This document shows, piece after piece, positions 11,619 to 43,125 of a stretch of 64,000 bases of DNA. Positions within the stretch are counted from its first letter, which is position 1. Each line of letters begins with the position of its first letter. The DNA is from Alphaproteobacteria bacterium. Lineage in GTDB: Bacteria; Pseudomonadota; Alphaproteobacteria; Rs-D84. The translations under genes and the position numbers were made by a program. The stretch lies in the NCBI GenBank assembly GCA_009777955.1, contig WRKW01000001.1, positions 162,309 to 226,308 of the forward strand, given 5' to 3'. The notes beneath the pieces are model-generated. The model worked only from the letters and a program-made list of their open reading frames with translations. It did no database searches and was not told the DNA's origin.

Positions 11619-13658
11619 TTAGAATTTTATTCTCATTCCAATGTTCAGGGCGTATGATTCATAGGCATTTCCGAATTCCAATGTAAAGTCGCCATAAGCG
11701 TAAGAGCTTTGTGTCATACGAACATTCGTGCCGATGGATATATCAAAGCCGGCTCCGCCGATATCAGAATCCATGTAAACCCCTGCGAAATTCATTTTTG
11801 TATTCCCCAGCCATTCGTTATAGATTCCTGCTTCGATGAATGGCCGCCATACTGAATCGGTTCCTTCGACCAGATAAGTTGCCTGCAGTGCCAACCGGGT
11901 GTCGAAACTGTGCGTATCGTCGAAAGTTATAACATCACCAAAGCTTGTTTTATGTGAAGAGCCAAGCCCCAACGAATATCGGGCTTCGACTTTTGGTTCC
12001 CACATTATCAGCGATATTTCGCGTTTTCCGAATTGTGCGAACGAAGGTGCATAGTGCCACATGGAACGACCGCTTTCGACACTTGTAGATATAAAGTTGC
12101 GCATCGCACGATGTTCTATATCATGGCCGCTGCTGGACACATTATTTAAATTTGTTTCTACCCAAAAATTACGGAACGTGGCATCGACGAACCATCCGGA
12201 TTTGTGCATCCAGGTTGCGTATGTTCCTATGTTGGGGATGGATGCGTCACCGCTTCCGTAAAACTTGTTTGTCTGTTTGATTTTTACACTATCGGAATAC
12301 ATTATTCCGCCCATAATTCCTACATATAGTTCACTATTATGTAATTTTCGCGAAATGTCTATTCCGCTCTCTGTCCCGACCAAACCAATTCTTGTGCTGA
12401 TCGTATCGTTAACGTTTAAGTATTTCCCATAAGAACGGATCCATAGGCCTGCCTGCTTTTCTTTATTTTCGCTGCGCAAATTTCCCAGACGTTTGCGCAA
12501 CTCATTCATTCCGGATTTCACTATGTACAGGTGCATCGCTGGAACATTGGCGATTGTTTTTGCCGTGTTCGTAAGTTGCGCCGTGTTATTTGATGGATCT
12601 GGCGACATGTTCGTTGTCAGGTACCAGTTATCGTCACTACCCTGAACCAAGCCATATTCCAATGCGCCGACATCAATTACTTTACCCGCTAACGAGAATT
12701 TTGAAGTTTTTACAATGGCATCGGTCAGATCTACAACCAGTATTCCATTGGCATCCTTTGGGGTTCGGGTTTCGCTAAAGCCCGTTGGGGTAATAAACAA
12801 AGTTGCGTTACCGGTCGCGCTTCCAGTAAGTACAAGCTTGTCCGATTTATTACCTTTGTCGTCAAAGTATGTATTAAGAAAAATATTCCCACCGTTCGCT
12901 GTCCAGTTTTCAACTGTCAAAGTATTGTATTGGCCGGAAATCGATCGCAGATCGATATTCGCGCCACCTGATATTGAAAGGTTATTTATGGATAATGTGT
13001 CGTAAAAGTGAATTGTTCCGCCAGATATTACATTGCGACCCGCAAAAAAGTTTGTTGTATATACTCTGGTTACGCCGCCGGTTTGTGTGAATGTTCCATT
13101 AAAGTTATTGTTGATGGAACTGGATTGCAAAACAAGTTCCCCATTTCCTGATTTATTTATATAGCTGTTGTTATCTCCGACATTGGAAATTCCGCCATAA
13201 AAAATAACTTGGCCAGAGTTGCCATTTATATTGAGATGACTGTCGCCCGAACCAAACAGGCTGAACAATGCGATGTCGTTCAACCCTGTTGAGTCTGAAT
13301 TTTCTTTGAATATGGTTGTATCATCGTTTGCTGTTTGTATCGTTATTGTGCCAGAGCTTAAATATATCGCGCCACCCCGTTCATCCGTATGGCGATTTTC
13401 GAATTTGTCGCCGCCCGATATACTGAATGTGCCACCATTTATGCAAAAGCGTCCGCCGCTGCCGTTGGTGCAGCTGAATGCAGCATTAAAATTCATGATG
13501 AACAGTATGGAACAAAGCGTTTTTACAAAAAATTTTCCCCGCGCCAAGGCTGGTCTTTTTTGTACCGAATGACGCTTGGTTATGAAACGATAAAAAAAAT
13601 GTGGCATTTTCAGCGTCATAATGCAAAGCATTATATCATAATTACCGGTTTCTATCAA
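11619..13658 (-). CDS. Autotransporter outer membrane protein with Pmp-like (GGAI) passenger repeats. The start is uncertain among the first roughly 20 codons.
   Basis: The N-terminal signal reads KTLCSILFIMNFNAAFS. The passenger is rich in Asn/Gly/Thr/Ser with GGAIY, FxxN and INGNSG motifs. The C-terminal roughly 280-aa beta-domain has alternating hydrophobic residues and a terminal ...GMRIKF. Confidence 0.65.
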   Translation of the reverse strand: MIETGNYDIMLCIMTLKMPHFFYRFITKRHSVQKRPALARGKFFVKTLCSILFIMNFNAAFSCTNGSGGRFCINGGTFSISGGDKFENRHTDERGGAIYLSSGTITIQTANDDTTIFKENSDSTGLNDIALFSLFGSGDSHLNINGNSGQVIFYGGISNVGDNNSYINKSGNGELVLQSSSINNNFNGTFTQTGGVTRVYTTNFFAGRNVISGGTIHFYDTLSINNLSISGGANIDLRSISGQYNTLTVENWTANGGNIFLNTYFDDKGNKSDKLVLTGSATGNATLFITPTGFSETRTPKDANGILVVDLTDAIVKTSKFSLAGKVIDVGALEYGLVQGSDDNWYLTTNMSPDPSNNTAQLTNTAKTIANVPAMHLYIVKSGMNELRKRLGNLRSENKEKQAGLWIRSYGKYLNVNDTISTRIGLVGTESGIDISRKLHNSELYVGIMGGIMYSDSVKIKQTNKFYGSGDASIPNIGTYATWMHKSGWFVDATFRNFWVETNLNNVSSSGHDIEHRAMRNFISTSVESGRSMWHYAPSFAQFGKREISLIMWEPKVEARYSLGLGSSHKTSFGDVITFDDTHSFDTRLALQATYLVEGTDSVWRPFIEAGIYNEWLGNTKMNFAGVYMDSDIGGAGFDISIGTNVRMTQSSYAYGDFTLEFGNAYESYALNIGMRIKF

Positions 13659-16418: not shown

Positions 16419-17420
16419 TTGTGTAAATATGATATAATCTTTGCCAAGAGAGATTATATTTTGAAAAAATTCCTTTTATTTTTTGTTACAGTTAATGCTT
16501 TGCTATTGTGTCAGGTTTATGCCGATATATTGGCACTGGATATCGCGGTTGCCGAAACGCGGGACAGTTGCAATGGAATTTCTGATGAATTGAAATCATT
16601 ACAGACCATGGCCGGGATAAATACTGCGATTACTGGTATCGGAACAGTTGCCGGTGGTGGTGCTTTGTACGCAGGAATTCAAAAGAAACAATTGGATGAG
16701 AAGGCAAGAGAACTTTGGGAATATATTAAAGATATAGAAGATATGAGTGATGATGCTTTTTTTATGCTTTTAGTAAAATTAGCAAATTATAAAGAAGCAT
16801 CTGAGATTATGGATAAAGAATGGGATGAGGACATACTTAATATGGTAGACACACAATCGAAAAATTTTGGTAATTGGCGGACGGGTTTGATGGCCGGTAA
16901 CACTGCTACAAATATTGCAGGTACTGTGATCGCAAATAAAAACAAAAATGCCGGAAAAGGCATAGTTGTTATGGTAAATTCGTGTTTGGATTCTTTAATA
17001 GGTTTGCGCGCGGCCTGGATGCAAGCGCGATTAGATGGTGCGGATATTGATGATTTGATTCTTGCGCAAAGGATAGTTGATGAATGCGGAAAGTACAACA
17101 TAAGGGATTTGGAAAAAATTCCACGTCGATCCGACATAGCCAAATGGTCTTCGGCGGTGGGTATCGGGACAGGTGCAGCTGGAACCGTAACCAGTGTGGT
17201 TGCGAATACGGAAAATATACGCAATGCAGCACGTGACACACAGGATGGTGTTCATAAAAATGCCTGGGAAAAAGAACAGAATCTGAATACTGCTTCCAAT
17301 ATTCTGGCTGGTGCCAGTACCGTTGCCAGTGGTATTGCAACCGGTTTTAATATTGCAACGATTACTGTGATAAACAAAGCATTGGGTGTCGCGAATAGCT
17401 GTGAATATATGTTGAGATGA
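16419..17420 (+). CDS. Hypothetical secreted protein with Gly/Ala/Thr-rich glycine-zipper-like segments. The start is possibly at an internal TTG near 16461.
   Basis: It has a signal-like segment KKFLLFFVTVNALLLCQVYA and repeated small-residue segments (GINTAITGIGTVAGGGALYAG, AGNTATNIAGTVIAN, AVGIGTGAAGTVTSVVAN, LAGASTVASGIATGFNIATI). Its stop overlaps the start of the downstream protease gene (ATGA). Confidence 0.4.
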   Translation: MCKYDIIFAKRDYILKKFLLFFVTVNALLLCQVYADILALDIAVAETRDSCNGISDELKSLQTMAGINTAITGIGTVAGGGALYAGIQKKQLDEKARELWEYIKDIEDMSDDAFFMLLVKLANYKEASEIMDKEWDEDILNMVDTQSKNFGNWRTGLMAGNTATNIAGTVIANKNKNAGKGIVVMVNSCLDSLIGLRAAWMQARLDGADIDDLILAQRIVDECGKYNIRDLEKIPRRSDIAKWSSAVGIGTGAAGTVTSVVANTENIRNAARDTQDGVHKNAWEKEQNLNTASNILAGASTVASGIATGFNIATITVINKALGVANSCEYMLR

Positions 17421-25500: not shown

Positions 25501-27184
25501 GGGTGGTGTCAACAATTGGCTTAATTCTTTGAGGGGTGAAACCGGTGTCCAAGGAGCGATTGGTTTGCAGGGTGAGACTGGTGCAACCGGCGCAACTGCG
25601 GGAGAAGTTGCCGAGGTGCTTAAATACGATTCTGGATTTGTTGATTCTGTGCGAGGACATCAGGGGGTTGCCGGTGCTACGGGCATATCTGCGTTCGAGC
25701 TTGCTATCGAAGAAGCCGGTTACGATATGTGGGGTGGTGTCAACAGCTGGCTTAACTCTCTGAGAGGTGAAACTGGTGTGACTGGTGCGACCGGTCTGTC
25801 GGCATTTGAATTTGCTCAACAGTATGACGATACCTTTGGTATGACAGAGATAGAATGGCTGCAGTCTCTGAGAGGTGAAACCGGCGTGACTGGTGCGACC
25901 GGTGCTACTGCGGGCGAAGTTGCGGATTATCTGTCGCAAGATCAGGACTTTGTTGATTCTGTACGGGGACCTCAGGGGTTCACGGGCGCTACTGGTCTGT
26001 CGGCGTATGAGTTGGCTGTCGAAGAAGTTGGTGATGATATATGGGGCAGTATTGAAAATTGGCTTGATTCCATAAAGGGTGAAATAGGTCCCCAGGGAGT
26101 GAAGGGGGATGATGGCGCGGGTATAGAAATTTCCGGTTCTGTCGATACATATGGCGGTTTGCCCAATAACCTTACATCCACTGATGCGGGAAGGGCGTAC
26201 TTTGTCCGTGGTGATGGGTTGCTTTATGTCTGGGATGGTGCAGGATTTCCAATCGATGGCAATGGAATCCAGTTCCAGGGGCCGGCCGGAGCATCCGCAT
26301 TCCAGCTTGCCATAGAAAGTGGCGTTTGGACTGGCGCGACCGGTCCACAGGGTGAATTGGAATGGCTTACGTCACTTCAGGGAGTCATAGGTGTCGATGG
26401 TAAATCTGCATTCGAGCTTGCTATAGAAAGTGGTGTTTGGACCGGCGCGACCGGCTTGCAAGGTGAATTAGAATGGCTTGAATCGCTTCAGGGGGTTATA
26501 GGTGTTGATGGTAAATCTGCATTCGAGCTTGCACAAGAATTCGACCCAAATGTGACATTGGAAACAACTATGGAAGAGTGGCTGGAATCTCTTCGGGGAG
26601 CGACTGGTCCATCCGGAGTATTGAACACAGATAATGACGAACCCTTGGAAGTTCCGTCCGAACCAGAGTTGCTTTCCGGCGATTTGCAGTTGCACAGGGT
26701 TTCAAAAACTGGGAATTACGAGCATTTAAATGAATTGCCTATGTTAATGACGAGCATAGAAGCCCAAAGCGCGATTGAAGAAGCGACCCCGATTTTTGGT
26801 GATGTGATTCTGCATCAAGTATCAAGAACGGGGAATTATGATCATCTTATTGATATACCAACCCTTGCGATACAACAAGAGGCACAGATCGTGCCAGAAG
26901 AAGGACAAGAGCTGTTTTCAGGCCAAATAACCCTGCAAACAGTCTCAAAAACTGGGGATTATACGGATCTTCACAATACGCCAGCAATTTGGGATACAGC
27001 TGGATTGATTGGAACAATCGGAACACTTGGCACTGATGGACTTCCCCTTATTCCCACCGATGATACCGAAGGGAAGTTGATCGATGGCCAAACGATACAA
27101 CAAACCATTATTACAGTACAGGGTGGCAAAGTCGAAGGGTATCTTATAGTTCCGACACAGGTATTACCGGAATGGACATGGTAA
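22553..27184 (+). CDS. Giant secreted collagen-like triple-helix repeat protein with phage-tail-fibre-like repeats.
   Basis: The 1543-aa protein has a signal peptide (ILALCPMVAQA) and a long Gly-X-Y region (GPQGHQGETGATGAQGAAGTDG...GPAGPAGPAGSAG...). It contains about nine 31-42-aa units (GATGATAGQVAEVLKEDSEFIESARGHQG) and the repeat [VS]K/RTGNY.HL...P three times near the C-terminus, resembling phage tail fibre repeat motifs. It lies antisense between plsX and fabH. Confidence 0.7.
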   Translation: MAGTESFLVKKSSVSYLVILALCPMVAQAASTVRTSSAGISSSTSATQSVGSIGSSALKSVGASTSSGSVSRVPAMPKGATSGSLTSSGSCVNCPDVDLSDYAKRRDVDAVEARVDDLEIELDGKANISDVYFQHEVYNKEEIHELLDDFQSGEDGATGPQGHQGETGATGAQGAAGTDGTVGTQGFQGFQGVTGATGAVGAQGATGVQGATGLVGLSAYQVALSRSNVLVGLPENATEIQFLEWLKGPQGAPGSAGLQGAQGPQGSAGSGSGGGGAQGPAGPAGPAGSAGPQGNIGPQGPAGPAGPAGPAGSAGSAGPAGPAGSQGNIGPQGSAGPAGPAGSAGPQGIMGAQGQAGAQGAAGSQGAQGAQGAQGAAGSQGATGAQGAQGIGVTGAQGATGTQGAQGEQGVQGTGATGATGATGETGVQGAPGLTGPQGERGEIGAGISAYAMAQAQGYSGSEIEWIASLKGATGMSAFELAQQQGIAAGMTESQWVESLKGSTGATGATGTDEYQVASTLINNPNFIESVRGPKGDQGAQGVTGAEAWQVADILKVDSEFLESARGYQGVTGAAGATGASAEEIAELLVVDPLFVDAVKGPTGPTGAQGQDGILGGDGKSALEVAREYMNLPNMTFSEWSEFLRGDVGVAGPTGPTGAAAWQVAEVLKEDSEFLESARGYQGETGATGATGATAGQVAEVLKEDSEFLESARGYQGEIGATGATGATAGQVAEVLKEDSEFMESARGYQGVTGATGATAGQVAEVLKEDSEFIESARGHQGAIGATGATAGQVAEVLKEDSEFIESARGHQGATGTSAFNLAIEEAGYDIWGGVNNWLDSLKGATGATGATGATAGQVAEVLKEDSEFIESARGHQGTQGVTGATGVTGATGATGATAGQVAEVLKEDSEFIESARGHQGTQGVTGATGVTGVTGATAGQVAEVLKEDSEFIESARGHQGVAGAAGISAFELAIEEAGHDMWGGVNNWLNSLRGETGVQGAIGLQGETGATGATAGEVAEVLKYDSGFVDSVRGHQGVAGATGISAFELAIEEAGYDMWGGVNSWLNSLRGETGVTGATGLSAFEFAQQYDDTFGMTEIEWLQSLRGETGVTGATGATAGEVADYLSQDQDFVDSVRGPQGFTGATGLSAYELAVEEVGDDIWGSIENWLDSIKGEIGPQGVKGDDGAGIEISGSVDTYGGLPNNLTSTDAGRAYFVRGDGLLYVWDGAGFPIDGNGIQFQGPAGASAFQLAIESGVWTGATGPQGELEWLTSLQGVIGVDGKSAFELAIESGVWTGATGLQGELEWLESLQGVIGVDGKSAFELAQEFDPNVTLETTMEEWLESLRGATGPSGVLNTDNDEPLEVPSEPELLSGDLQLHRVSKTGNYEHLNELPMLMTSIEAQSAIEEATPIFGDVILHQVSRTGNYDHLIDIPTLAIQQEAQIVPEEGQELFSGQITLQTVSKTGDYTDLHNTPAIWDTAGLIGTIGTLGTDGLPLIPTDDTEGKLIDGQTIQQTIITVQGGKVEGYLIVPTQVLPEWTW
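24520..25440 (+). repeat. In-frame tandem repeat array of 93-126-bp units, about eight copies, inside the collagen-like gene.
   Basis: The nearly identical unit ggtgcgactgcgggacaggttgccgaagtgcttaaagaagatagtgaatttatagaatc(t/c)gcaagggg(a/g)catcagggt... recurs with spacings of 102, 102, 93, 93, about 195, about 126 and about 120 bp. All are multiples of 3, with a degenerate copy near 25590. Confidence 0.7.
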
Positions 27185-28321: not shown

Positions 28322-28495
28322 TTATTTCGCCATCACTTGCTTTTCGTCATAAGCCCCGCATGCCGCGCATACATGATGTGGACGTTTTTTTTCACCGCAT
28401 TTTTTACAGTTGCCGGATGCCATTATTGCCAGGGCATCGTGATTGCGGCGCATAGCACTTTTTGCTTTGCTGGTTTTCTTTTTTGGAACCGCCAT
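28322..28495 (-). CDS. rpmF: 50S ribosomal protein L32.
   Basis: The minus-strand translation MAVPKKKTSKAKSAMRRNHDALAIMASGNCKKCGEKKRPHHVCAACGAYDEKQVMAK carries the L32 signature (AVPKKKTS..R...RR.H) and a CxxC...CxxC zinc ribbon. This ORF is absent from the supplied ORF list because it is short. Confidence 0.8.
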   Translation of the reverse strand: MAVPKKKTSKAKSAMRRNHDALAIMASGNCKKCGEKKRPHHVCAACGAYDEKQVMAK

Positions 28496-28604: not shown

Positions 28605-31600
28605 ATGTATTATAATGTCATTATGAAAAACAGTAATATTAAAAATATTAAAAGATACGAAAAACTGTATTCCGAGCTGGAAACCCTGCGCGTACAGATA
28701 GATTCTGCTTTGGCTTCTATAATTGCCAGGGCGAAAAAGTCCCGTGAAAGCCAAAAATCCGTATTTAAAAACCAGGTTGGCAATCTGGGGCAGCTTATTA
28801 TCGCAATAGACAAGATGTTGGAAAAAAAAGAATCCAGATCAATAGCCAAAAAATTCAAATCCGCATCAAACCGTCTGGTTGCAAAGGTTGTTTCCAGGGT
28901 AACAAAGCAGGATAATATAAGCCAGCTTGAAAACCATGCAAAAGCTGTGTTGAAAGAAATGTTCATGATGAGCATACGGGGAGAGAATGATTACGATACA
29001 GCCGTATTGGATCAAGAGTTTGAAGATCTGTCGCCAAAAAAACGTCGTAATTCTGATATGGCGATTGATTACAAGAAAAAGCAATGGGGTATAAGGCGAA
29101 TAGTATTGGATGGCATACAAAATCATGTGGATGCAAAGGGAAATGTTTGGTGCCAATGTTTGATTGATGGAAATTGGGTCAATGTGGGTTTGGCAAAATT
29201 CCATCGCGACAAGATAAAAGCTGTAAGATTTGTCGATGATGGAGAAACGGGTTATCCTTATGAAAGAATGCTTGTTCTTGATTCCACGAAAGCAGATGAT
29301 CAAAGCACAGTGGGTGAAAATGGCGAAGGCTTAAAGTTAATAGCTTTGGCGGCGTTGCGTGAAGGACTGGATATGTACTGTGAATCAAGGAATTGGAGGG
29401 GAACCCCCGTGGCGTTTCCATATATAGTTGATAAAATCGCAGGCAAGAAAAAAACTTGGTACGGTGTTGATGTCCAAGAATCAGAAAGCATGTCTATCAG
29501 GGGAAGCAGAACCTTTTTTATGAATCCTTCCAAAAATTTTTTGTACGAAATTCTGAATATAAAGTCGAATGTCCTGCAATTGAATTCTGAAGAAGAAAAA
29601 AGGGTTGTATTCCGAAACAAACATATTGAAGTCTTGGATAATGGCGGCGGAAAACTTTACAACAAAGGTTTTTTTATCCAGGAAGGAAGAGTCGCGCTTT
29701 CTTATAACTTCAGCGATATAGAAATCAATACCGACCGCAACTATATAAATAGCGATTGGATCAGAAAGATAAACGATTATGTATGGCGTTCGGACGAATT
29801 ATCTGTCGATTTTGTCGGAATTTTTTTAAGACGTTCGAACGAAATGGCAATCGAAGGTAAGCATTATTCACAACAAGATTTTATACGGCTCGATAGTCTG
29901 ACCGACCAAAACAAAGCCATAATCCAACAGGCTTTTATTAAAGAGTTCGGGGAAGATGCCTGTATCGACAGTGGGTGGAAAATCCCAGAAGGATCAGAAC
30001 CGCTGCCGAAAATTGTGAAGTTCAATACAGAAGTCAATGATTGTCTTGTCAAAGCAGGAATTAAAACTACCAAAGATATTCAGCCGCCGTATCACGAAGA
30101 ACATCTATCCACTTCTTTTGTTGTGGAAGAAAATGCATATTGGGGTGCCGCCGAGATAATGCGTGATGTTGTGCAAAATCATCTTCCAGGCGGTGATTCC
30201 GGCGGTGACAAGATTTATGCAGAATTTCTTGGTGGTGACGGAGAATGGCGGGATCTTTATAGTACCGGGAAAATATCTTATCAGGATATAAAGGCGATAA
30301 GGATTGGTGATAATGGGCGGGGATTTGATTGGATCAGCCTTAAAATGAAAAGCAGCAACAAAAGCGATACAGATAATTCTGTGGATAACGCCGCTGGAAA
30401 ATTCGGCGAAGGTTTAAAAATTGTCGCGTCAAGCGCATTATCAATGCAACAAGATATGATTTTCAAGTCTGCGAAGAACCGATATGGTTCAAGTGGAGAG
30501 GAATGGTTCGCTATACCTGAAACAGAAGAGTACGAAGATAACCAAAAAAAGAAAAAGGCTCTGGCTTTCAAGGTCAGAACACATTTTAAAGATTGGGAAA
30601 GCAGTGAGTTTAAGAAATATTTTTATAAATATTCTATCAGCGAAACTATATTCATACTTCCAAAAGAAGAAATATGGAATGAATTCAAAACACTTGAAAA
30701 AAAGTTTCTTGTATTTCGGAAAGAAAAACCAGAATATCAAACGGAATATGTAGATTTATTAAGTTTTAACGACAACGCTCTTTATGTTCGTGGACAACTT
30801 GTGTTTGAAAATTATGATTTGCAGTTTTCATATAACTTGAAAAAATTTGTGATAAAAGACAGGGACAGGCGACAGATAAAACAGGAAGAGCTTTCAAATG
30901 AAATCGCAAAATTCTGGGGTTCAACCCAAGATATTTCGCTTATCAGCAAGTATTTACATCAGGCTGCTCTTTGTGCAGGTTATTCAGAAGAACCTTTGGA
31001 ATTCAAGTCTGATGCCTTGGTGCCGGAATATCCTGATTTATGGATAAAATGCTTTCGTGATAAATTCGGGGACAAGGCAGTTGTGCGTTCGTCTAAAGAT
31101 AAGAATGAAACAGCAATAGCAGAAGCCACATACCATAATGCCACCGTTGTATCGGTTCCGCCAAGGGTTTATGAGATGCTGGTTAATCTTAGGGGTAAAG
31201 ACGGGGATCGTTTGATTACACTGGGTATTGCCAAGGAGAAACTGCTGGAACACAAGGATGTGCCCGAAGATCAGCTTACCAAGGAACAGAAAGAAGGGTT
31301 GAAATTTGCGCGGGAACTGATGGAGTATATGGGCTTTAAATACGAAATAAAGGCTGTTGATTTTAAAATACCAACGACTTTGGGTTGTTCCGGCAATCCG
31401 ATATCTTTGGGTATTTTAGTACTAGGAGAGGGAAAGCTTTCAATTGCAAATACCCTTATTCATGAAGTGGGACATAATGAAACAGGTGCTGCTGATCTTG
31501 ATTCAGAATTTCGCAATTGGTTTTGTATGAAATTATCCGAAGTTGTGCTTTATCTTATGGAAATAGATAAAGAAGATGCTATTCAAAAAGAGAAAATAAG

Positions 31601-31628
31601 AAAAGTATTGAAGGCTGGGCGTTCATAG
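28605..31628 (+). CDS. Large hypothetical protein with two tandem GHKL/Bergerat-fold ATPase-like modules (sacsin-repeat or MORC-like) and a C-terminal HExxH putative metallopeptidase motif.
   Basis: Module 1 has an N-box VLDGIQNHVDA, G1 VDDGETGYP and G2 GENGEGLKLIA. Module 2 has an N-box RDVVQNHLPGGD, G1 IRIGDNGRGFD and G2 GKFGEGLKIVA. The C-terminus reads LIHEVGHNETG (HExxH). The protein is 1007 aa, has no signal peptide and uses AT-rich codons. Confidence 0.5.
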   Translation: MYYNVIMKNSNIKNIKRYEKLYSELETLRVQIDSALASIIARAKKSRESQKSVFKNQVGNLGQLIIAIDKMLEKKESRSIAKKFKSASNRLVAKVVSRVTKQDNISQLENHAKAVLKEMFMMSIRGENDYDTAVLDQEFEDLSPKKRRNSDMAIDYKKKQWGIRRIVLDGIQNHVDAKGNVWCQCLIDGNWVNVGLAKFHRDKIKAVRFVDDGETGYPYERMLVLDSTKADDQSTVGENGEGLKLIALAALREGLDMYCESRNWRGTPVAFPYIVDKIAGKKKTWYGVDVQESESMSIRGSRTFFMNPSKNFLYEILNIKSNVLQLNSEEEKRVVFRNKHIEVLDNGGGKLYNKGFFIQEGRVALSYNFSDIEINTDRNYINSDWIRKINDYVWRSDELSVDFVGIFLRRSNEMAIEGKHYSQQDFIRLDSLTDQNKAIIQQAFIKEFGEDACIDSGWKIPEGSEPLPKIVKFNTEVNDCLVKAGIKTTKDIQPPYHEEHLSTSFVVEENAYWGAAEIMRDVVQNHLPGGDSGGDKIYAEFLGGDGEWRDLYSTGKISYQDIKAIRIGDNGRGFDWISLKMKSSNKSDTDNSVDNAAGKFGEGLKIVASSALSMQQDMIFKSAKNRYGSSGEEWFAIPETEEYEDNQKKKKALAFKVRTHFKDWESSEFKKYFYKYSISETIFILPKEEIWNEFKTLEKKFLVFRKEKPEYQTEYVDLLSFNDNALYVRGQLVFENYDLQFSYNLKKFVIKDRDRRQIKQEELSNEIAKFWGSTQDISLISKYLHQAALCAGYSEEPLEFKSDALVPEYPDLWIKCFRDKFGDKAVVRSSKDKNETAIAEATYHNATVVSVPPRVYEMLVNLRGKDGDRLITLGIAKEKLLEHKDVPEDQLTKEQKEGLKFARELMEYMGFKYEIKAVDFKIPTTLGCSGNPISLGILVLGEGKLSIANTLIHEVGHNETGAADLDSEFRNWFCMKLSEVVLYLMEIDKEDAIQKEKIRKVLKAGRS

Positions 31629-31757: not shown

Positions 31758-33278
31758 ATGATGAGAGAGTTCAGGTTACTTTTCCCCGCGATTATGGGAC
31801 TTTTCGTGCCTTTTGCCGCGTCTGTCGCGCAAGAGGGGACTCCGTTTTACTATCAACAGGGTTATCGGCCTGCTCAGACGGTACAAACAAGCAGCGGAAA
31901 TACGGTGATCAGCCAGCGAAGCCATACACTCCAAGTTCCGCGCGCCGCAACCGATCAATATGGCCAACCGGGTCAAATTCCTGGAAGCTTTTCGCCCTTT
32001 GCCATGGGAACCATGACCCCGAATGGCATCGGAGTATTGCAACAGCCGGATTGGCTGGCAAGCCTTACCTATACGCGTAAATATGCAGATTTCGAATTTC
32101 ATACAGGTGTAAATTCCATTTTGAAATGGAACGACATGGTAATCAATGAAATCGGACTTCGTCTGGATCATAACTTTACCATACGCAATTACAATCTTTT
32201 TGCGTTCGGAGAATACAGATTTGGAAGTGTGGCCAATGACGGGCTTTCGATGGACTATGACCTTTTGCCGTATGATGAAAGGGTGCCATATATCGGAATA
32301 TTTACCATATCTATGGGTGATCAGGACGGAAAAACAGACTATCTGCGGCTTGGGTTTGGTGCAAAAAATGTCTGGGATATCGCGGGATGGAAGTTGTCGC
32401 CCAGTATTGGTTACGAAGTATTCAAGCACAACTTGCAAATGTCTAACCATATTTATCCCAATCCCGGGATATATTTGCCACTTATGACGGACAGGGGCGA
32501 ATACGTGTTCGGCGACGGTATGGGAAATTTCTATAATATTCCGATAAATGTAACGCCAGAAGATTACTTGTATCAGGTCTGTCTTTCCCCGGAAGATATC
32601 GCAATAGTTTATACCGATCCCGATGGTTCGCCGGCACTTAATGGCGGTACTCTTTGGACCGGTCCGTATGACGAGAGTATGGGATATATTCCATGGGGGG
32701 TTGGGCCAAGCGATTGCGTTATCATCGGCGGTGATGGTGCAATCAAAGTCGGCGGGGTGACCCATATTTATAATACTACTTGGAGCGGTATATATCTTGG
32801 ACTGGAAGTGGAAAAACAATTGACATTTGCCGACAAATTGCGCTTTTATCTGCAAGTCAGCATGCCACATTATTATTCCGAAGGTATCTGGCCGAACCGT
32901 ACCGACTGGCAACAAAGCCCAAGCTTTACGGACGAAGGCAGTACCGGTGCATATTCGTATCTGTTGGAAATGGAATATACTTATCAGTTGTCTGACAGAT
33001 TACAGTTTTCTTTGAAAGCGGATACGAATTACTTTTATGTTGGCAAAATAGGCGGAAATCTTTATGTCGCGCCCTATACAACATACTTGTATGATGAAGC
33101 AACCGGCCAATATGTCTATACAGATATGGATGGCATACAATGCGACCCATATGTAACCGCTGGTTGTTTTCCGACACCGATAGATGTTCCCGCGCATACG
33201 CAAAAGATTTCAGATTCTTTGCTGTATTCGAAATGGCAATCATTTGCTTTGCATATCGGGCTTAAATATGCGTTCTAA
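31758..33278 (+). CDS. Outer-membrane beta-barrel protein (hypothetical OMP).
   Basis: It has a signal peptide (LLFPAIMGLFVPFAASVAQ), many alternating aromatic/hydrophobic beta-strand patterns and a C-terminal ...IGLKYAF with terminal Phe, an OMP85-sorting signature. Confidence 0.45.
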   Translation: MMREFRLLFPAIMGLFVPFAASVAQEGTPFYYQQGYRPAQTVQTSSGNTVISQRSHTLQVPRAATDQYGQPGQIPGSFSPFAMGTMTPNGIGVLQQPDWLASLTYTRKYADFEFHTGVNSILKWNDMVINEIGLRLDHNFTIRNYNLFAFGEYRFGSVANDGLSMDYDLLPYDERVPYIGIFTISMGDQDGKTDYLRLGFGAKNVWDIAGWKLSPSIGYEVFKHNLQMSNHIYPNPGIYLPLMTDRGEYVFGDGMGNFYNIPINVTPEDYLYQVCLSPEDIAIVYTDPDGSPALNGGTLWTGPYDESMGYIPWGVGPSDCVIIGGDGAIKVGGVTHIYNTTWSGIYLGLEVEKQLTFADKLRFYLQVSMPHYYSEGIWPNRTDWQQSPSFTDEGSTGAYSYLLEMEYTYQLSDRLQFSLKADTNYFYVGKIGGNLYVAPYTTYLYDEATGQYVYTDMDGIQCDPYVTAGCFPTPIDVPAHTQKISDSLLYSKWQSFALHIGLKYAF

Positions 33279-38078: not shown

Positions 38079-40820
38079 TTAAGCGGCTTGTTGCCAACCT
38101 TGACCTATCATCCAATTTTGACGTAGTAAGTCCAATTCGCTAAGCGGCTTGCCTTTGGCATCTACTTCTGACGATGCCTGTTTGAATTCTGCTCTTATAC
38201 GACTTTGGTGACGGAATGGATTCTGACTATCAGACATTCCCGATTGCAGAAAATCCCAATAATAAGTAAGTTCGCTGACTATATTCAGCTTTTCTTTCTT
38301 TGCTGGTTCCGCTTTATTTTTCAGTATCTCCTTTCTAGCATCGATTTCATTCTTTGCGAATTTCAAATCGAAATCGGCTTTTTCATGGGCTTCACGCTTT
38401 TTATCGTACTCTTTATAACTATCAGATTCGAAAACCGCCTCGATGTTTTTGAGATCATTGTTTTTTATATTTTCTATTTCAGATTTTAAAGTATCAGGCC
38501 TTTCAAATACATCCTTAATTGTTTTGGTTTGTGTAACTTTTTTTTCTTTTTTACTTATTTCGGCATCTTTCGCAGTTTTTGACTGAAAATTTGTTTTTAT
38601 ATTATTATCTATCGCTTCTATCTTTTTAGTCAGTTTATCCCATTCAGCTTTTTGTACTTGCGCGGCCTGTTCTATATTGACTGTCATTGGGCTTGCCCGA
38701 ACCAGCAAATTTTGTCCCATCCATGATTTATCCGCTTCCAACCGTTGTTTTTCCTGTTCCAACCGTTGTTTTTCCTGTTCCAACCGTTGTCTTTCTGTTT
38801 CCAATTGTCGTTTGTTATTCACAGCTGTTCTATGATCAGCTCTTGCCGCATTAAGGTCATAATTATCGGACAAATTCGGATTCTCTTCTTTTAGTTTTTT
38901 GATTTCTGCTTCTGCTTTGCTTTTATCAGATTCCAGGTTACTTATTCTTTTATCAATATTCTTTTTTTTGTTTTGAAAATAAGTAGGACTTTTGTCCCCT
39001 TGGTCACTTTTAAATGCATCCCTAGCTGCTTTCATTTCCTGTTCTGCGGTTTCCTTTTTAATCTTTAATTCGGGCTCTTTTTGTTCCCAAGTATCAATTA
39101 TCTTTTGAAGTTCTTCTGGCGATTCATTTTTACCCTTGATTTCGTTGTATCGATCCGCAATTTTCATCAAGAATTCGTTATGACTTTCTTTTTCTCCAAA
39201 TTTTAAACCGGTTCTATGATACGTGCGCCACAAATAGTTTAATCCTTCGAACGTGGCTCTTGCGCCGAATTTTACTACACGGTCAACTATGCGACCCATA
39301 AATGCCAGCGGGGTTCCTTTTGCCGATGGCATATCGCCAAAAAATCCCCAATTTGATTTTTCACCGAACAGTTTTTCGCGTACATTGCTGGTAAATGGAC
39401 CGTATTGCATTACGCTTAAAACTTCCAGCAAAATTTTTGCCGCTTCCAACTTGTCTTCTGTGGCTGCACGTTTTATTATAATCTCTACCAAATGATGCAT
39501 TTGCCGCCCGTTTTTCAGCGCACTTGCAAAAGATTTCTTTAAACCTTGATCTTTTGAAAATTCTTCCAAAAGCTCTTTACCCCATTTCCAGTTTGGTATT
39601 GATCCGCTTGAATTGGCTTCTACATAATTCCAAATGTCCTCTTGCTTTTCGACTATTTTACCCAGACCATCTTGCGGTTTTATTTCCAGTTTATAAATCC
39701 CGTCCACAACGGCTTTTGCAGCGGGGTTACTATAAGAATGGCGATGATGCCGATTTCCAAATTTATCCCACGTCCCTTCGCGATAGTCATTCCATGCCTT
39801 GTCGATGTGTTCGCGAATCCCCCTTTTATCATCACTTTTTGCGACAATCTGGTTAAATTTGTCGCCTTTATAATCTATATTGTCTTTGGCGGCTGCTATG
39901 GCTGCTTTTAAATCTGGTTCACTGTTGTCAAAAGCGCCGACGCGCTGGTCTTTTTCGTAAAGTTCAGACATCAAGACCGACCAGTTCTCTTTAATATATT
40001 TTATATCTTCTTTTTCATCAACTGGTTCGGGTTTTCTTCCATTTCGAAAAGCATTAATGGTTGCTAAGTCTATTTCTTTTGGTGTTGGATTCGCCGCATT
40101 ATCAATATTCTGACTCAGCATCTGCAAAGCATCTTCTGCCTTGTCAAAAAATTCTGTACCAGCTTCTCCTGGATTAAGGAGATCTGTGTAAAAACTATCG
40201 GGTACATCCACTTTAAAATTACCATAAGAGCTCCGTAACGCCACATTGAATGCATTTTTATTTTTATCGCTTTCATCTACGAATTTTCCGATCTTAATCA
40301 ATGCATTAAGAGCTTCTTTTTTATAAATATCTTCTGGTTTTATCGGTTGAAATGGTTTTGTTTTGTCTGTGCCGCTACTGTTATAGTATTTATCCATCCA
40401 ATCCAATACGAACAGCTTGTCTTTGCCCGGAACAGAACTTCTGGATGCGTGTATTTTGCGGAAATTGTCACGAAAGTATACGTAAAGTTTTTCCCAATCG
40501 TTGTCATTAAGCTTTACATTAATTGGTTGTCCGGCAAGATCGAATTTATTTTCACCATCTTCGCCACTATACCCAAGTGCTTTATATCCAACATCTGTTG
40601 GTTTGTTTATATGATCTTCCCAAATACCGCTGTTTGGGCATGGTTGCATAGAACGAAGATAACGCCACCACAGCAGTTGTGTTTTTGATGCTTCATTTTT
40701 TGAAACCATATCCTCCAGACGCACTTGCTGTGCACTGGGCATGGAATTCGCATGTAGCCATTTGTAATACTGGTCTGCAAAATTTGCCAGTGGTGTTGAA
40801 TTGCTGAAACTTGTTGCCAT
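38079..40820 (-). CDS. Large hypothetical coiled-coil protein (913 aa), a candidate secreted effector.
   Basis: It has no signal peptide and a central coiled coil with the heptad-like repeat QRLEQEK x3. It is a Lys/Glu/Asp-rich, low-GC gene bounded by MITE-like repeats (37925 and 41195) and tRNA-Leu(TAG). Confidence 0.5.
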   Translation of the reverse strand: MATSFSNSTPLANFADQYYKWLHANSMPSAQQVRLEDMVSKNEASKTQLLWWRYLRSMQPCPNSGIWEDHINKPTDVGYKALGYSGEDGENKFDLAGQPINVKLNDNDWEKLYVYFRDNFRKIHASRSSVPGKDKLFVLDWMDKYYNSSGTDKTKPFQPIKPEDIYKKEALNALIKIGKFVDESDKNKNAFNVALRSSYGNFKVDVPDSFYTDLLNPGEAGTEFFDKAEDALQMLSQNIDNAANPTPKEIDLATINAFRNGRKPEPVDEKEDIKYIKENWSVLMSELYEKDQRVGAFDNSEPDLKAAIAAAKDNIDYKGDKFNQIVAKSDDKRGIREHIDKAWNDYREGTWDKFGNRHHRHSYSNPAAKAVVDGIYKLEIKPQDGLGKIVEKQEDIWNYVEANSSGSIPNWKWGKELLEEFSKDQGLKKSFASALKNGRQMHHLVEIIIKRAATEDKLEAAKILLEVLSVMQYGPFTSNVREKLFGEKSNWGFFGDMPSAKGTPLAFMGRIVDRVVKFGARATFEGLNYLWRTYHRTGLKFGEKESHNEFLMKIADRYNEIKGKNESPEELQKIIDTWEQKEPELKIKKETAEQEMKAARDAFKSDQGDKSPTYFQNKKKNIDKRISNLESDKSKAEAEIKKLKEENPNLSDNYDLNAARADHRTAVNNKRQLETERQRLEQEKQRLEQEKQRLEADKSWMGQNLLVRASPMTVNIEQAAQVQKAEWDKLTKKIEAIDNNIKTNFQSKTAKDAEISKKEKKVTQTKTIKDVFERPDTLKSEIENIKNNDLKNIEAVFESDSYKEYDKKREAHEKADFDLKFAKNEIDARKEILKNKAEPAKKEKLNIVSELTYYWDFLQSGMSDSQNPFRHQSRIRAEFKQASSEVDAKGKPLSELDLLRQNWMIGQGWQQAA
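38745..38830. repeat. 21-bp tandem repeat (about four copies) inside the coiled-coil gene, encoding QRLEQEK.
   Basis: The unit ttccaaccgttgtttttcctg occurs twice perfectly, followed by two degenerate copies. Confidence 0.6.
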
Positions 40821-41331: not shown

Positions 41332-43125
41332 TCACTCTACGATTGCTGGGATTACTACGATGTCATTATAACCACTAAGAAAACGGTTGCCAGTTTTACA
41401 ATATATCTTTTGCAGGGAATCTTTGTATTCACGTTCGGCGGCAGCATAGCGCACATCTATTTCGTCCTGTGCCCCGTGGTATGCCGAAAGCCCGCCAAGC
41501 GCACCACCCGCCACACCGCCGGTTACGGTTGCGGTTGTCCGTGCCTGGTTTTGAAAATCGACTAAGCGTCCATCATCGGCACTGTCGTATAATGGAGAGA
41601 AACTTGAGTTATTGACTCCATCAGATGCTACAAACAGGCTTCTTATTTTAGTACCTCTACGATATGCAATCGTACCTTTAAGCCATCCTGATTTTTTTTC
41701 TGACCATGTACTTGCATCTGGGGCTTTTAAGCCCTTTGTCGCATCATCAGGCAAAATCAAAACAGCAGGTTCTTCTCTGGTTACAAAAAAACCATCATCT
41801 ATCGGTATGTATGTTTCATAGCCATCGCCCTCACCTTTACAACCATCCCTATCAAGTTTAATATGTTTATTTTCATCCCAAAATTTACACCCTTTATTTC
41901 GATTCTCTGGCTTAGTAAATGCACTGGCCAATGACTCCCAATCTGTCCAATCTTCTTTGGTTCCGCATCCCCCTGTAGAGAGATCTTTATCAGGATTTTT
42001 TATTTTCCATCCTGTCGCTCGTATAGCGGTACAAATATATTTGTCTGGACAGTTTGAATGTGAAAATTCCTGTCTTGTACAAGTGACAATAGTATCTCTA
42101 CTGAGAGTTAGATATGCCAGACAGTCACTTTGGTCACATTTTTTTGATATCTTCTCACCGGCCGAGAGTATCGTTCCCCATAGACATTGCTGGTTCGATT
42201 TCGCGCCGACAGCTTCCGCATCGTCTGTAGCTTCCGTTTCACAATCCCGTATCATCAGCTTTGACTTTCCGATTCCAGACATGTTGCCCATAAATGCGCC
42301 ACCGACGGCATTAACGCCCGCACCCATCAATGTATTTCCCCCGACGTGCCCCATTTGGGTCGATGCGTATGTTACACCACCGGCACCAATTGCGCCCTTT
42401 ACCGCCGCGCCCAGATTATCTTTGGTTTCGGTTCCCGGATTGCTTCGGTTTAAAAAGAACATGCCTGCACCACCAACCAATGCGGCGGCGGCGGTTTTCA
42501 GGCCGGCATTTTGCTTTTGTTCTTGATCCATAATTTTTTTAACATCTTCCTTTGTGGGGGCTTTGTCTGCTGGGAATGTAACCTTTCCGGCATCTATGGT
42601 ATATCCGGATTCAGGAAAATGGCTTATGTTACAATCGACGCTGTCACCGGCGGCAACAAATGCATGTGCCAGCAGTATGTCATTATTGCCATGTTGCAGC
42701 CACATCCCGACTTCCGCTACGCATCTGGGGGTATTGTCACCAATGCGTAATCCGGCATTTGGTGCTGTCCATGCGAATTTTCCCTGGGGATTAATAGCGG
42801 CGCATCTTTGAAGTGCTTCGATGGCGACGGGCATATTTCCCGGCGCGACAGCACCCGGCGTGCGATAACCCATGACTATGGCGCGCGCGACATCCGGATC
42901 CACAACACGTACGGGCAGGGCGGCGATTTCTGCTTCGATTCCTTCGGGGGATGCATAATATGCGGCTTCGGCCTGCATCTGGGTAATCTGGTTGTATCCT
43001 TCGGCATAATATGCGCGTGGATTCGATTGCTGTGTTCCGCTGGTAATACGAACCGCGGCATGCGGGGATGATGCTGTTAAAGCAATGAATAATGAATAAT
43101 GAATAATGAATAATGTCTTTTTCAT
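41332..43125 (-). CDS. Hypothetical secreted Cys-rich protein (597 aa).
   Basis: The signal peptide MKKTLFIIHYSLFIALTASS is partly encoded by the GAATAAT repeat. There are many Cys residues in the central region (CDQSDCLAYL, CTRQEFSHSNCPDKYIC, GGCGTKEDW, CKFWDENK, DGCKGEGDG). I recognise no family. Confidence 0.4.
   Translation of the reverse strand: MKKTLFIIHYSLFIALTASSPHAAVRITSGTQQSNPRAYYAEGYNQITQMQAEAAYYASPEGIEAEIAALPVRVVDPDVARAIVMGYRTPGAVAPGNMPVAIEALQRCAAINPQGKFAWTAPNAGLRIGDNTPRCVAEVGMWLQHGNNDILLAHAFVAAGDSVDCNISHFPESGYTIDAGKVTFPADKAPTKEDVKKIMDQEQKQNAGLKTAAAALVGGAGMFFLNRSNPGTETKDNLGAAVKGAIGAGGVTYASTQMGHVGGNTLMGAGVNAVGGAFMGNMSGIGKSKLMIRDCETEATDDAEAVGAKSNQQCLWGTILSAGEKISKKCDQSDCLAYLTLSRDTIVTCTRQEFSHSNCPDKYICTAIRATGWKIKNPDKDLSTGGCGTKEDWTDWESLASAFTKPENRNKGCKFWDENKHIKLDRDGCKGEGDGYETYIPIDDGFFVTREEPAVLILPDDATKGLKAPDASTWSEKKSGWLKGTIAYRRGTKIRSLFVASDGVNNSSFSPLYDSADDGRLVDFQNQARTTATVTGGVAGGALGGLSAYHGAQDEIDVRYAAAEREYKDSLQKIYCKTGNRFLSGYNDIVVIPAIVE

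Follow-up and report, generated by a model that had tools for sequence, protein, structure and literature searches.

A conserved family of proteins with tandem GHKL ATPase modules and a C-terminal mini-zincin domain, described from an alphaproteobacterial genome

The gene and the plan of its product

We analyzed a stretch of 64,000 nucleotides (nt) from an alphaproteobacterial assembly (GCA_009777955.1, contig WRKW01000001.1, positions 162,309 to 226,308), hereafter the window. One forward-strand gene, at 28605-31628, encodes a 1007-residue protein in which two GHKL-type ATPase modules are followed by a predicted zincin-like domain, and we refer to it as the GHKL-zincin gene. From N- to C-terminus, the product consists of a variable helical region, two paralogous modules of ~340 amino acids (aa), and a minimal zincin domain of ~105 aa. 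Each module comprises a GHKL ATP-binding domain and then a ~170-aa beta/helical domain. The open reading frame (ORF) proposed in the first-pass annotation was borne out by translation, and all seven motifs that had been quoted from the protein were located where expected. The features are listed below by position in the window.

28605-31628, +: whole gene, 1007 aa by ORF translation, coordinates including the stop codon
28605-28982, +: N-terminal region (aa 1-126), four long predicted helices, coiled-coil-like, from the secondary structure of the model
29040-30053, +: module 1 (aa 146-483), a GHKL domain (aa ~146-306), then a small beta domain and helices (aa ~310-483)
29097-29132, +: module 1 N box RIVLDGIQNHVD (aa 165-176), with Asn173 as the Mg-binding Asn and Asp169 four residues before it (N-4)
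29229-29255, +: module 1 G1 box FVDDGETGY (aa 209-217), with Asp211, Gly213, and Gly216 conserved
29313-29336, +: module 1 G2 box GENGEGLK (aa 237-244), canonical GxxGxG type, preceded by a conserved S227-x-K229
29727-29741, +: module 1 NTDRN motif (Asp377-Arg378), within the module's second half, Asp in 82/85 and Arg in 85/85 aligned modules
30093-31184, +: module 2 (aa 497-860), paralogue of module 1, GHKL domain at aa ~497-684
30153-30197, +: module 2 N box EIMRDVVQNHLPGGD (aa 517-531), with Asn525 and Asp521
30303-30329, +: module 2 G1 box IGDNGRGFD (aa 567-575), canonical DxGxG (DNGRG)
30396-30419, +: module 2 G2 box GKFGEGLK (aa 598-605), canonical GxxGxG (GKFGEG)
30858-30872, +: module 2 DRDRR motif (Asp754-Arg755), conserved, counterpart of Asp377-Arg378
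31257-31574, +: mini-zincin domain (aa 885-990), from the AlphaFold model
31461-31496, +: HEVGHNETGAAD (aa 953-964), containing HExxH (HEVGH, 953-957), Thr960, and Asp964
31509-31514, +: Phe969-Arg970, start of the last predicted zincin helix, invariant or nearly so among homologues

An alternative start at Met7 (nt 28623, +) is used by NCBI for MCL2017318.1, a protein identical to the product of 28605-31628 that is recorded as “hypothetical protein FWG80_00895” from an Alphaproteobacteria metagenome-assembled genome (MAG). The identical gene also occurs in two further assemblies (JGI 3300002469 and ENA ERZ27257348), with the same neighbors: rpmF, plsX, and a gene for an outer-membrane protein (OMP) of the Pom family. 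The composition of the protein is ordinary: rich in Lys and Glu, near charge-neutral overall, and not low-complexity. A search for hydrophobic, signal-like, or membrane segments found none, in agreement with the earlier reading that a signal peptide is absent. We conclude that the protein is a soluble member of a conserved, previously unannotated family.

Predicted folds and conserved sites

The two segments that had been read as Bergerat-fold ATPases from their motifs are GHKL domains by both fold and profile comparison. An AlphaFold model built with a 34-sequence alignment of full-length homologues reached a mean predicted local distance difference test score (pLDDT) of 80.9 and a predicted template-modeling score (pTM) of 0.51, whereas a 2-sequence alignment gave an unusable model (pLDDT 33). 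It places a Bergerat fold in both segments, and the Asn, Asp, and Gly positions of the ATP site are conserved. When this model was compared with the PDB by Foldseek, the top matches were GHKL ATPases only: TRAP1 (7.6e-7, full-length, ~650 columns), MutL LN40 (1.3e-4), and TopoVI-B (4e-4), followed by many Hsp90 N-domains. The claim that the modules are unlike MutL was therefore wrong at the level of the fold, because the MutL N-terminal domain is among the best matches. Pfam searches point the same way, with HATPase_c found in 19/34 homologues and HATPase_c_3 in 15/34 (best E 2e-9).

The window protein itself does not pass these models. It scored only 13.8 bits against HATPase_c_3 (cut-off 25) and 16.6 bits against NF047352, the NCBIfam sacsin-like ATP-binding model (cut-off 50 bits), both weak matches falling in module 2 at aa 563-627. 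NF047352 also matched 17 of the 34 homologues weakly (best E 1.9e-4), all far under its cut-off. Sequence scans of the PDB with the window protein, and a profile search with a 4-module alignment, returned nothing significant, only noise. Across the window protein and the 34 homologues, Pfam found no HisKA-type (DHp) domain, and Pfam and NCBIfam found no DnaJ, HEPN, ubiquitin-like, or DNA-binding domain.

Conservation was counted in 108 module 1-type (M1) and 87 module 2-type (M2) modules of the best family representatives, and invariant columns were taken from the 34 full-length homologues. These homologues are only 23-32% identical to the window protein, yet they show little or no variation in the motifs. 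In module 1, the motifs first noticed are IQNHVDA (aa 171-177), DDGETG (aa 211-216), and GENGEGLK (aa 237-244); in module 2, they are VQNHLPGGD (aa 523-531), GDNGRGFD (aa 568-575), and GKFGEGLK (aa 598-605). Every module keeps the N-box Asn (Asn173 in M1, Asn525 in M2; 108/108 and 87/87). For the G1 Asp, the counts are 108/108 in M1 and 85/87 in M2 modules, and the G2 glycines are ~100% conserved in both. The invariant columns are D211, G213, G216, S227, K229, G237, G240, G242, and K244 in module 1, and N525, H526, G571, G573, G598, and G601-E602-G603 in module 2. In canonical GHKL ATPases, the catalytic Glu stands at N-4 (ExxxN). Here, this residue is Asp (D169, D521) in 104/108 M1 and 84/87 M2 modules. 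By analogy, Asp377-Arg378 of the NTDRN motif is a candidate phosphate sensor.

The tandem duplication is genuine: aa ~160-480 and ~510-850 align with each other over ~330 residues (BLASTP E 2e-12). A relative, P0002 (1103 aa, 26% identity), has both modules, and each cross-aligns with the opposite module of the window protein. Orthologous modules resemble each other more closely (30%) than paralogous ones do (25%). The duplication is therefore old. The helical region that precedes the modules (aa 1-126) was modeled with lower pLDDT, is poorly conserved with almost no invariant alignment columns, and is missing from many homologues.

The C-terminal domain was modeled with pLDDT 77-92 as far as residue 960. 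Its predicted elements run from a helix (893-909) through two strands (915-920 and 933-936) and a short bridge between them (~927-928) to the active-site helix (944-960) and a final helix (967-988). The zincin-like metallopeptidase core has been described as a sheet of three strands preceded by one helix and followed by two, with HExxH on the first of these two (PMC5512222). In the model, the order of elements in aa 885-990 matches this core. The C-terminal HExxH signature that had been noted, in LIHEVGHNE at aa 951-959, holds up: HEVGH lies on the modeled helix 944-960, after the strands, and the motif is invariant in the 34 homologues. H953, E954, H957, and F969 are invariant and T960 and D964 are at least 90% conserved, which gives the family a C-terminal signature of HExxH-x2-T-x3-D-x4-FR. 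In the last helix, conservation does not extend to the Glu of the consensus “FFE,” which the window protein replaces with Cys. Of 126 C-terminal domains (CT) among the best 157 family representatives, 115 have HExxH, and most others have EExxH, giant proteins among them. Because it is kept in these EExxH variants, Asp964 (+7 from the second His) is the best candidate for a third metal ligand. Wss1 was also among the fold matches, and the match is the right size for the C-terminal domain, where we place it by inference because the fold search used the whole model. As modeled, the C-terminal domain resembles Wss1/SprT zincins.

Family, distribution, and genomic setting

To a word-indexed search, whether with the single sequence or a 7-sequence profile, the only homologues were the window protein itself and P0002. 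An exhaustive HMMER search with a trimmed two-sequence profile recovered many more, with 780 cluster representatives (50% identity) at E ≤ 1e-3, of which 287 reached ≤ 1e-10 and 138 reached ≤ 1e-30. We assigned architectures to the best 157 proteins with local hidden Markov models (HMMs) for module 1, module 2, and the CT. The commonest arrangement was M1-M2-CT (54 proteins), followed by a single module and CT (37), other two-module forms with CT (26), and forms with three or four modules and CT (~12). Overall, the CT followed the module(s) in 129 of these 157. The first-pass suspicion that this architecture belongs to no described family proved sound, since no Pfam, NCBIfam, or PADLOC model passes its threshold for the window protein, the typical members sampled are all named “hypothetical protein,” and we found no paper on it. 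Both superfamilies are well known, whereas Pfam, NCBIfam, PADLOC, PHROG annotations, and the searchable literature describe neither the GHKL-zincin fusion nor the tandem arrangement nor the family.

We examined distribution with a scan seeded by patterns from 7 sequences over one genome per species (185,579 species). By label, the 49 loci found belong to candidate phyla radiation (CPR)/Patescibacteria (10), DPANN or unclassified archaea (18), “uncultured Methanosarcinales” (7), “uncultured Gammaproteobacteria” (3), Clostridia/Bacillota (7), Elusimicrobia (2), and Omnitrophota (2). The DPANN members were mainly single-module proteins with CT. In a distance tree, CPR, Clostridia, and DPANN members formed separate clades. 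The “Gammaproteobacteria” contigs fell inside the CPR clade and the “Methanosarcinales” with DPANN, so these labels are probably placeholders. The former are L007, L013, and L021; the latter are L017, L018, L025, and similar loci, of which L017 and L018 were placed with DPANN by the tree and L025 by match statistics nearly identical to those of a Woesearchaeota locus. The window protein sits alone on a long branch; by distance, the CPR clade holds its nearest relatives, and no locus exceeds 34% best-segment identity to it.

Some relatives are much larger. An Omnitrophota giant (L040; P0083/P0159, 6439 aa) carries a two-module cassette with CT at aa 2440-3355 of P0083, with EExxH for HExxH, and P0083 begins with a signal-like peptide. 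An Elusimicrobia giant (L020; P0158, 6481 aa) also embeds a two-module cassette with CT, and NCBI has named its fragments after other domains (M3 metallopeptidase, GNAT, LOG). Pfam added a transglutaminase-like core in only one of the long relatives.

Besides ultra-small symbiotic bacteria and archaea, where it mainly occurs, the family extends to some phages. Its module matches phrog_6077, annotated as of unknown function, at 5e-25, and there are 14 records in the phage collection. Moorella phage MTATph1 encodes a 446-aa protein with one module and a CT with HETLH, while Pseudomonas Ab18-like phages encode a 363-aa single module with a canonical ELLQNAID (Glu kept) and no CT; both are surrounded by replication genes. 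The top structural matches in BFVD were uncharacterized phage proteins (1.6e-19, template-modeling score 0.74), then ~25 rIIA proteins (2e-6 to 1e-3). Membership of the rIIA family was rejected, as T4 rIIA scored below zero bits against the family module HMMs, and the relationship to rIIA is therefore at the superfamily level only. A 363-aa single-module relative of this kind is found in Pseudomonas phage PAKlein3 (L053, 3935-5026). One such Ab18-like phage protein is annotated “RIIA lysis inhibitor,” which probably reflects fold-level similarity only, given the lack of a match for T4 rIIA. The neighbors of the window gene are rpmF and the OMP gene, with no search aimed at rIIB. A scan of IMG/VR with the family alignment found no relatives, which is weak negative evidence because its two back-translated patterns were narrow.

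Across 52 loci, the family had no conserved gene partner, and the commonest non-self neighbor cluster appeared at 6/52. Recurrent neighbors were common housekeeping genes: those for an ABC ATPase, NUDIX, RecG-like helicases, FtsZ, UvrB, and phosphoenolpyruvate (PEP) synthase. Immediately downstream of the family gene, loci of the Clostridia clade share a small conserved ORF of 112-167 aa without a Pfam match, which may be a clade-specific partner (L008 10966-11304, L010 10862-11287, L011 3501-4339, L012 4099-4602); it is absent from the window. At the locus of P0002, the closest indexed relative (L001/L002), a divergent Fic-domain gene lies upstream and a convergent PAS/HisKA sensor kinase gene downstream, neither of which is in the window. 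No mobile-element or defense-island neighbors were found in the window or at the 52 loci, and the window protein had no PADLOC match at E ≤ 10. A defense role, one of two functions floated at first, is thus not supported by either line of evidence. The other, an effector for a eukaryotic host, finds no support either: the window protein lacks a secretion signal, and most of the family belongs to organisms and viruses with prokaryotic hosts.

The setting of the GHKL-zincin gene in the window is ordinary chromosome, a housekeeping region. Along the window, the order is a MurC-like gene, ArgS, fabH, a collagen-like gene, plsX, rpmF, the GHKL-zincin gene, the Pom-family OMP gene, a lytic transglycosylase gene, an OlsB-like GNAT gene, an acyltransferase gene, and a class II aminoacyl-tRNA synthetase gene. 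The immediate neighbors were correctly identified from the start: rpmF at 28322-28495 (-) and the Pom-family OMP gene at 31758-33278 (+). The description of the gene as strongly AT-biased holds in direction, with GC 0.388 and GC at third codon positions (GC3) 0.365 against 0.448±0.035 and 0.428±0.053 for 34 ORFs of the window. “Strongly” was overstated, as these values are ~1.7 and ~1.2 standard deviations low and three further ORFs in the window are as GC-low. That the gene looks acquired is therefore backed only weakly by composition. A possible acquisition is better argued from the phyletic pattern, since among proteobacterial members the window protein alone is credibly labeled, although the pattern reveals no donor lineage.

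Other genes of the window stand out in their own right. The collagen-like gene at 22553-27184 (+) encodes 1543 aa (Pfam Collagen 4.5e-30), begins with a signal-like stretch, and contains many tandem repeats of 93-231 nt; at 0.527, its GC exceeds the window mean of 0.448. With fabH (21479-22450, -) on one side and plsX/rpmF on the other, and itself on the opposite strand, it splits the usual rpmF-plsX-fabH cluster, and by composition it seems more “inserted” than the GHKL-zincin gene. Four sizeable ORFs (913, 597, 333, and 322 aa) without a Pfam match lie at 38079-40820 (-), 41332-43125 (-), and 16419-18385 (+); the GC of the 913-aa ORF is 0.384, as low as that of the GHKL-zincin gene. The OMP at 31758-33278 (+) matches Pom, the Protochlamydia outer membrane protein, at 5e-9, and a pertactin-type autotransporter gene lies at 11619-13658 (-). 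Both are surface proteins and fit a host-associated lifestyle of the MAG.

Proposed function and comparison with known systems

GHKL ATPases such as GyrB, MutL, Hsp90, and MORC are ATP-operated dimeric clamps that pass their nucleotide state to C-terminal effectors. By analogy, we propose that the 1007-aa protein may be an ATP-gated clamp controlling a Wss1/SprT-like protease, whatever its client, a reading to which we give an about even chance of being right. M1 and M2 of one chain would form an intramolecular pseudo-dimer, and the single-module forms of DPANN archaea and phages would form homodimers. The clamp would close on a macromolecular client and open again as ATP is bound and hydrolyzed, and its state would control whether the C-terminal protease can be reached or activated. 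The constant coupling of one to four modules to a zincin, together with strictly conserved ATP and metal sites, argues for a functional link between nucleotide state and proteolysis. Candidate clients are DNA-bound proteins, free or misfolded proteins, or the protein itself through autoprocessing, and the role could lie in cellular maintenance or in inter-genome conflict.

Several observations weigh against this proposal. With Asp for the catalytic Glu in ~96% of modules, the modules may bind ATP yet hydrolyze it slowly or not at all. The G1 box of module 1 (DDGETG) carries a one-residue insertion relative to the family DDGxG, and module 2 has Glu517 in place of the usual Arg (80/87). The model does not show M1-M2 or module-protease contact, since pTM is only 0.51, and the third-ligand candidate Asp964 sits in a low-confidence loop (pLDDT 56). 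In the 34 CT domains, no zincin HMM was significant: the best was PF18818 (MPTase-PolyVal; E 0.019, 2/34), followed by Zincin_1 (0.14) and DUF6782 (0.28), and WLM and SprT-like gave nothing even at E ≤ 10. An hhalign comparison of the CT profile with Escherichia coli SprT (YggI) gave a probability of 0.4% and aligned the HExxH turn only, and a PDB sequence profile search with the 34-sequence C-terminal alignment returned only noise. Finally, the MPTase domains of mobile-element polyvalent proteins have been proposed to act in cis, by autoprocessing, and not on clients (PMC5512222).

One version of the clamp-protease proposal fixes the client. The GHKL modules would load on DNA, as in MutL, MORC, and type II topoisomerases, and the zincin would cleave DNA-bound or crosslinked proteins, in DNA-protein crosslink repair or in the removal of DNA-bound defense or replication proteins. 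A DNA-bound client fits because of the resemblance to topo II, MORC, and MutL on one side and Wss1 on the other, and because of the replication-gene context in phages. However, Pfam and NCBIfam detected no DNA-binding domain, the composition is near charge-neutral, and Hsp90 and TRAP1 match about as well as the DNA enzymes. RecG-like and UvrB neighbors occur at only 3-4 of the 52 loci, roughly the chance level for small genomes. We consider a DNA-bound client unlikely, if worth keeping in view.

Alternatively, the family may consist of conflict proteins of viral or mobile origin that act in counter-defense or exclusion, as does phage rIIA, or as delivered effectors of host-dependent microbes. 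Its zincin would then cleave host or competitor proteins, or merely process itself. The phage members, the phrog_6077 match, and the BFVD ranking of phage proteins first and rIIA next are consistent with this, as are the enrichment in the host-dependent lineages CPR, DPANN, and Omnitrophota and the cassette inside 6.4-thousand-residue giants with a signal-like N-terminus. Zincin MPTases are also the commonest domain of polyvalent conflict proteins (PMC5512222). Yet the window protein lacks a PADLOC match, a secretion signal, and a transmembrane segment, mobile-element and defense-island neighbors are absent from the window and the 52 loci, and T4 rIIA goes unmatched by the family HMMs; the IMG/VR scan was empty as well, though its patterns were narrow. 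On balance, we find this reading distinctly unlikely.

A still less probable reading is that of a proteostasis chaperone in the manner of sacsin or Hsp90, in which the modules would hold unfolded or aggregated proteins and the zincin would degrade them, a housekeeping function with FtsH-like logic. A free or misfolded client fits because of the Hsp90/TRAP1/sacsin-like resemblance, and full-length TRAP1 is indeed the best PDB match by Foldseek (~650 columns). The sacsin-like NCBIfam model weakly matches 17/34 homologues, and tandem Hsp90-like modules typify sacsin (PMC3710099). The gene also lies among housekeeping genes here and elsewhere, and the clades of the family tree follow taxonomy. Last, chance motifs in a spurious or low-complexity ORF would fit the direct matches of the window protein to curated models, all sub-threshold, but this explanation is refuted, with next to no probability left to it, by 780 representatives with conserved motifs, a confident fold, a duplication at E 2e-12, and the presence of the gene in two independent metagenome assemblies.

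To our knowledge, the well-studied ATP-dependent proteases all use AAA+ motors. The conserved fusion of GHKL modules to a mini-zincin suggests another way of coupling nucleotide state to proteolysis. It is possible, and we advance it tentatively, that the family represents a new class of nucleotide-dependent protease in which a GHKL clamp, not an AAA+ ring, controls a Wss1-like zincin, perhaps on DNA-bound proteins, and that its concentration in CPR, DPANN, Omnitrophota giant proteins, and phages points to a role in their host-dependent lifestyle. A GHKL-driven protease, if real, would make the finding considerably more important, and the version acting on DNA-bound proteins would be a prokaryotic and viral counterpart of the eukaryotic DNA-protein-crosslink proteases. 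Regardless of mechanism, a sizeable family (780 clusters at 50% identity) is now defined that no curated model names. Because it is concentrated in the poorly understood CPR, DPANN, and Omnitrophota and in several phages, it offers a concrete protein for studying how such reduced, host-dependent microbes and viruses deal with proteins or DNA-protein complexes. For this genome, it is a lineage-orphan gene within a housekeeping region.

As in the family, a single FtsH polypeptide combines an ATPase with an HExxH zincin, an analogy only: its AAA+ hexamer is unrelated to the GHKL clamp, the family has no membrane anchor, and the two are not known to be homologous. Compared with Wss1, SPRTN, SprT, and ArdC-type (MPTase-PolyVal, PF18818) zincins, the family zincin has GHKL modules as its fusion partner in place of the known ones, such as SHP/VIM/SIM and ArdC-N. 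The third ligand of Wss1, which we take to be a His six residues after the second His, would be replaced here by the candidate Asp at +7. Hsp90 and TRAP1 provide the best Foldseek PDB matches (TRAP1, 7.6e-7), and like sacsin, of which tandem Hsp90-like modules are a hallmark (PMC3710099), the family has Hsp90-like modules in tandem. By contrast, no Hsp90 C-terminal dimerization domain was detected in the family, and sacsin has no protease.

The phage T4 rIIA family likewise occurs in phages and has a GHKL N-terminal ATPase, although the similarity of rIIA proteins to our model is no better than that of TRAP1 or MutL. The rIIA family, annotated as a membrane integrity protector, combines this ATPase with a C-terminal region that varies greatly (PMC7824862), which differs from the conserved zincin described here. 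The GHKL clamp ATPases (the MutL N-terminal domain, the ATPase domain of GyrB/ParE/topo II, TopoVI-B, MORC2/3, and SMCHD1) have Glu rather than Asp at N-4 and work as homodimers, with Toprim, endonuclease, CW, or hinge domains that were not detected in the family. In their place, the family has two modules per chain and a zincin as the C-terminal effector.

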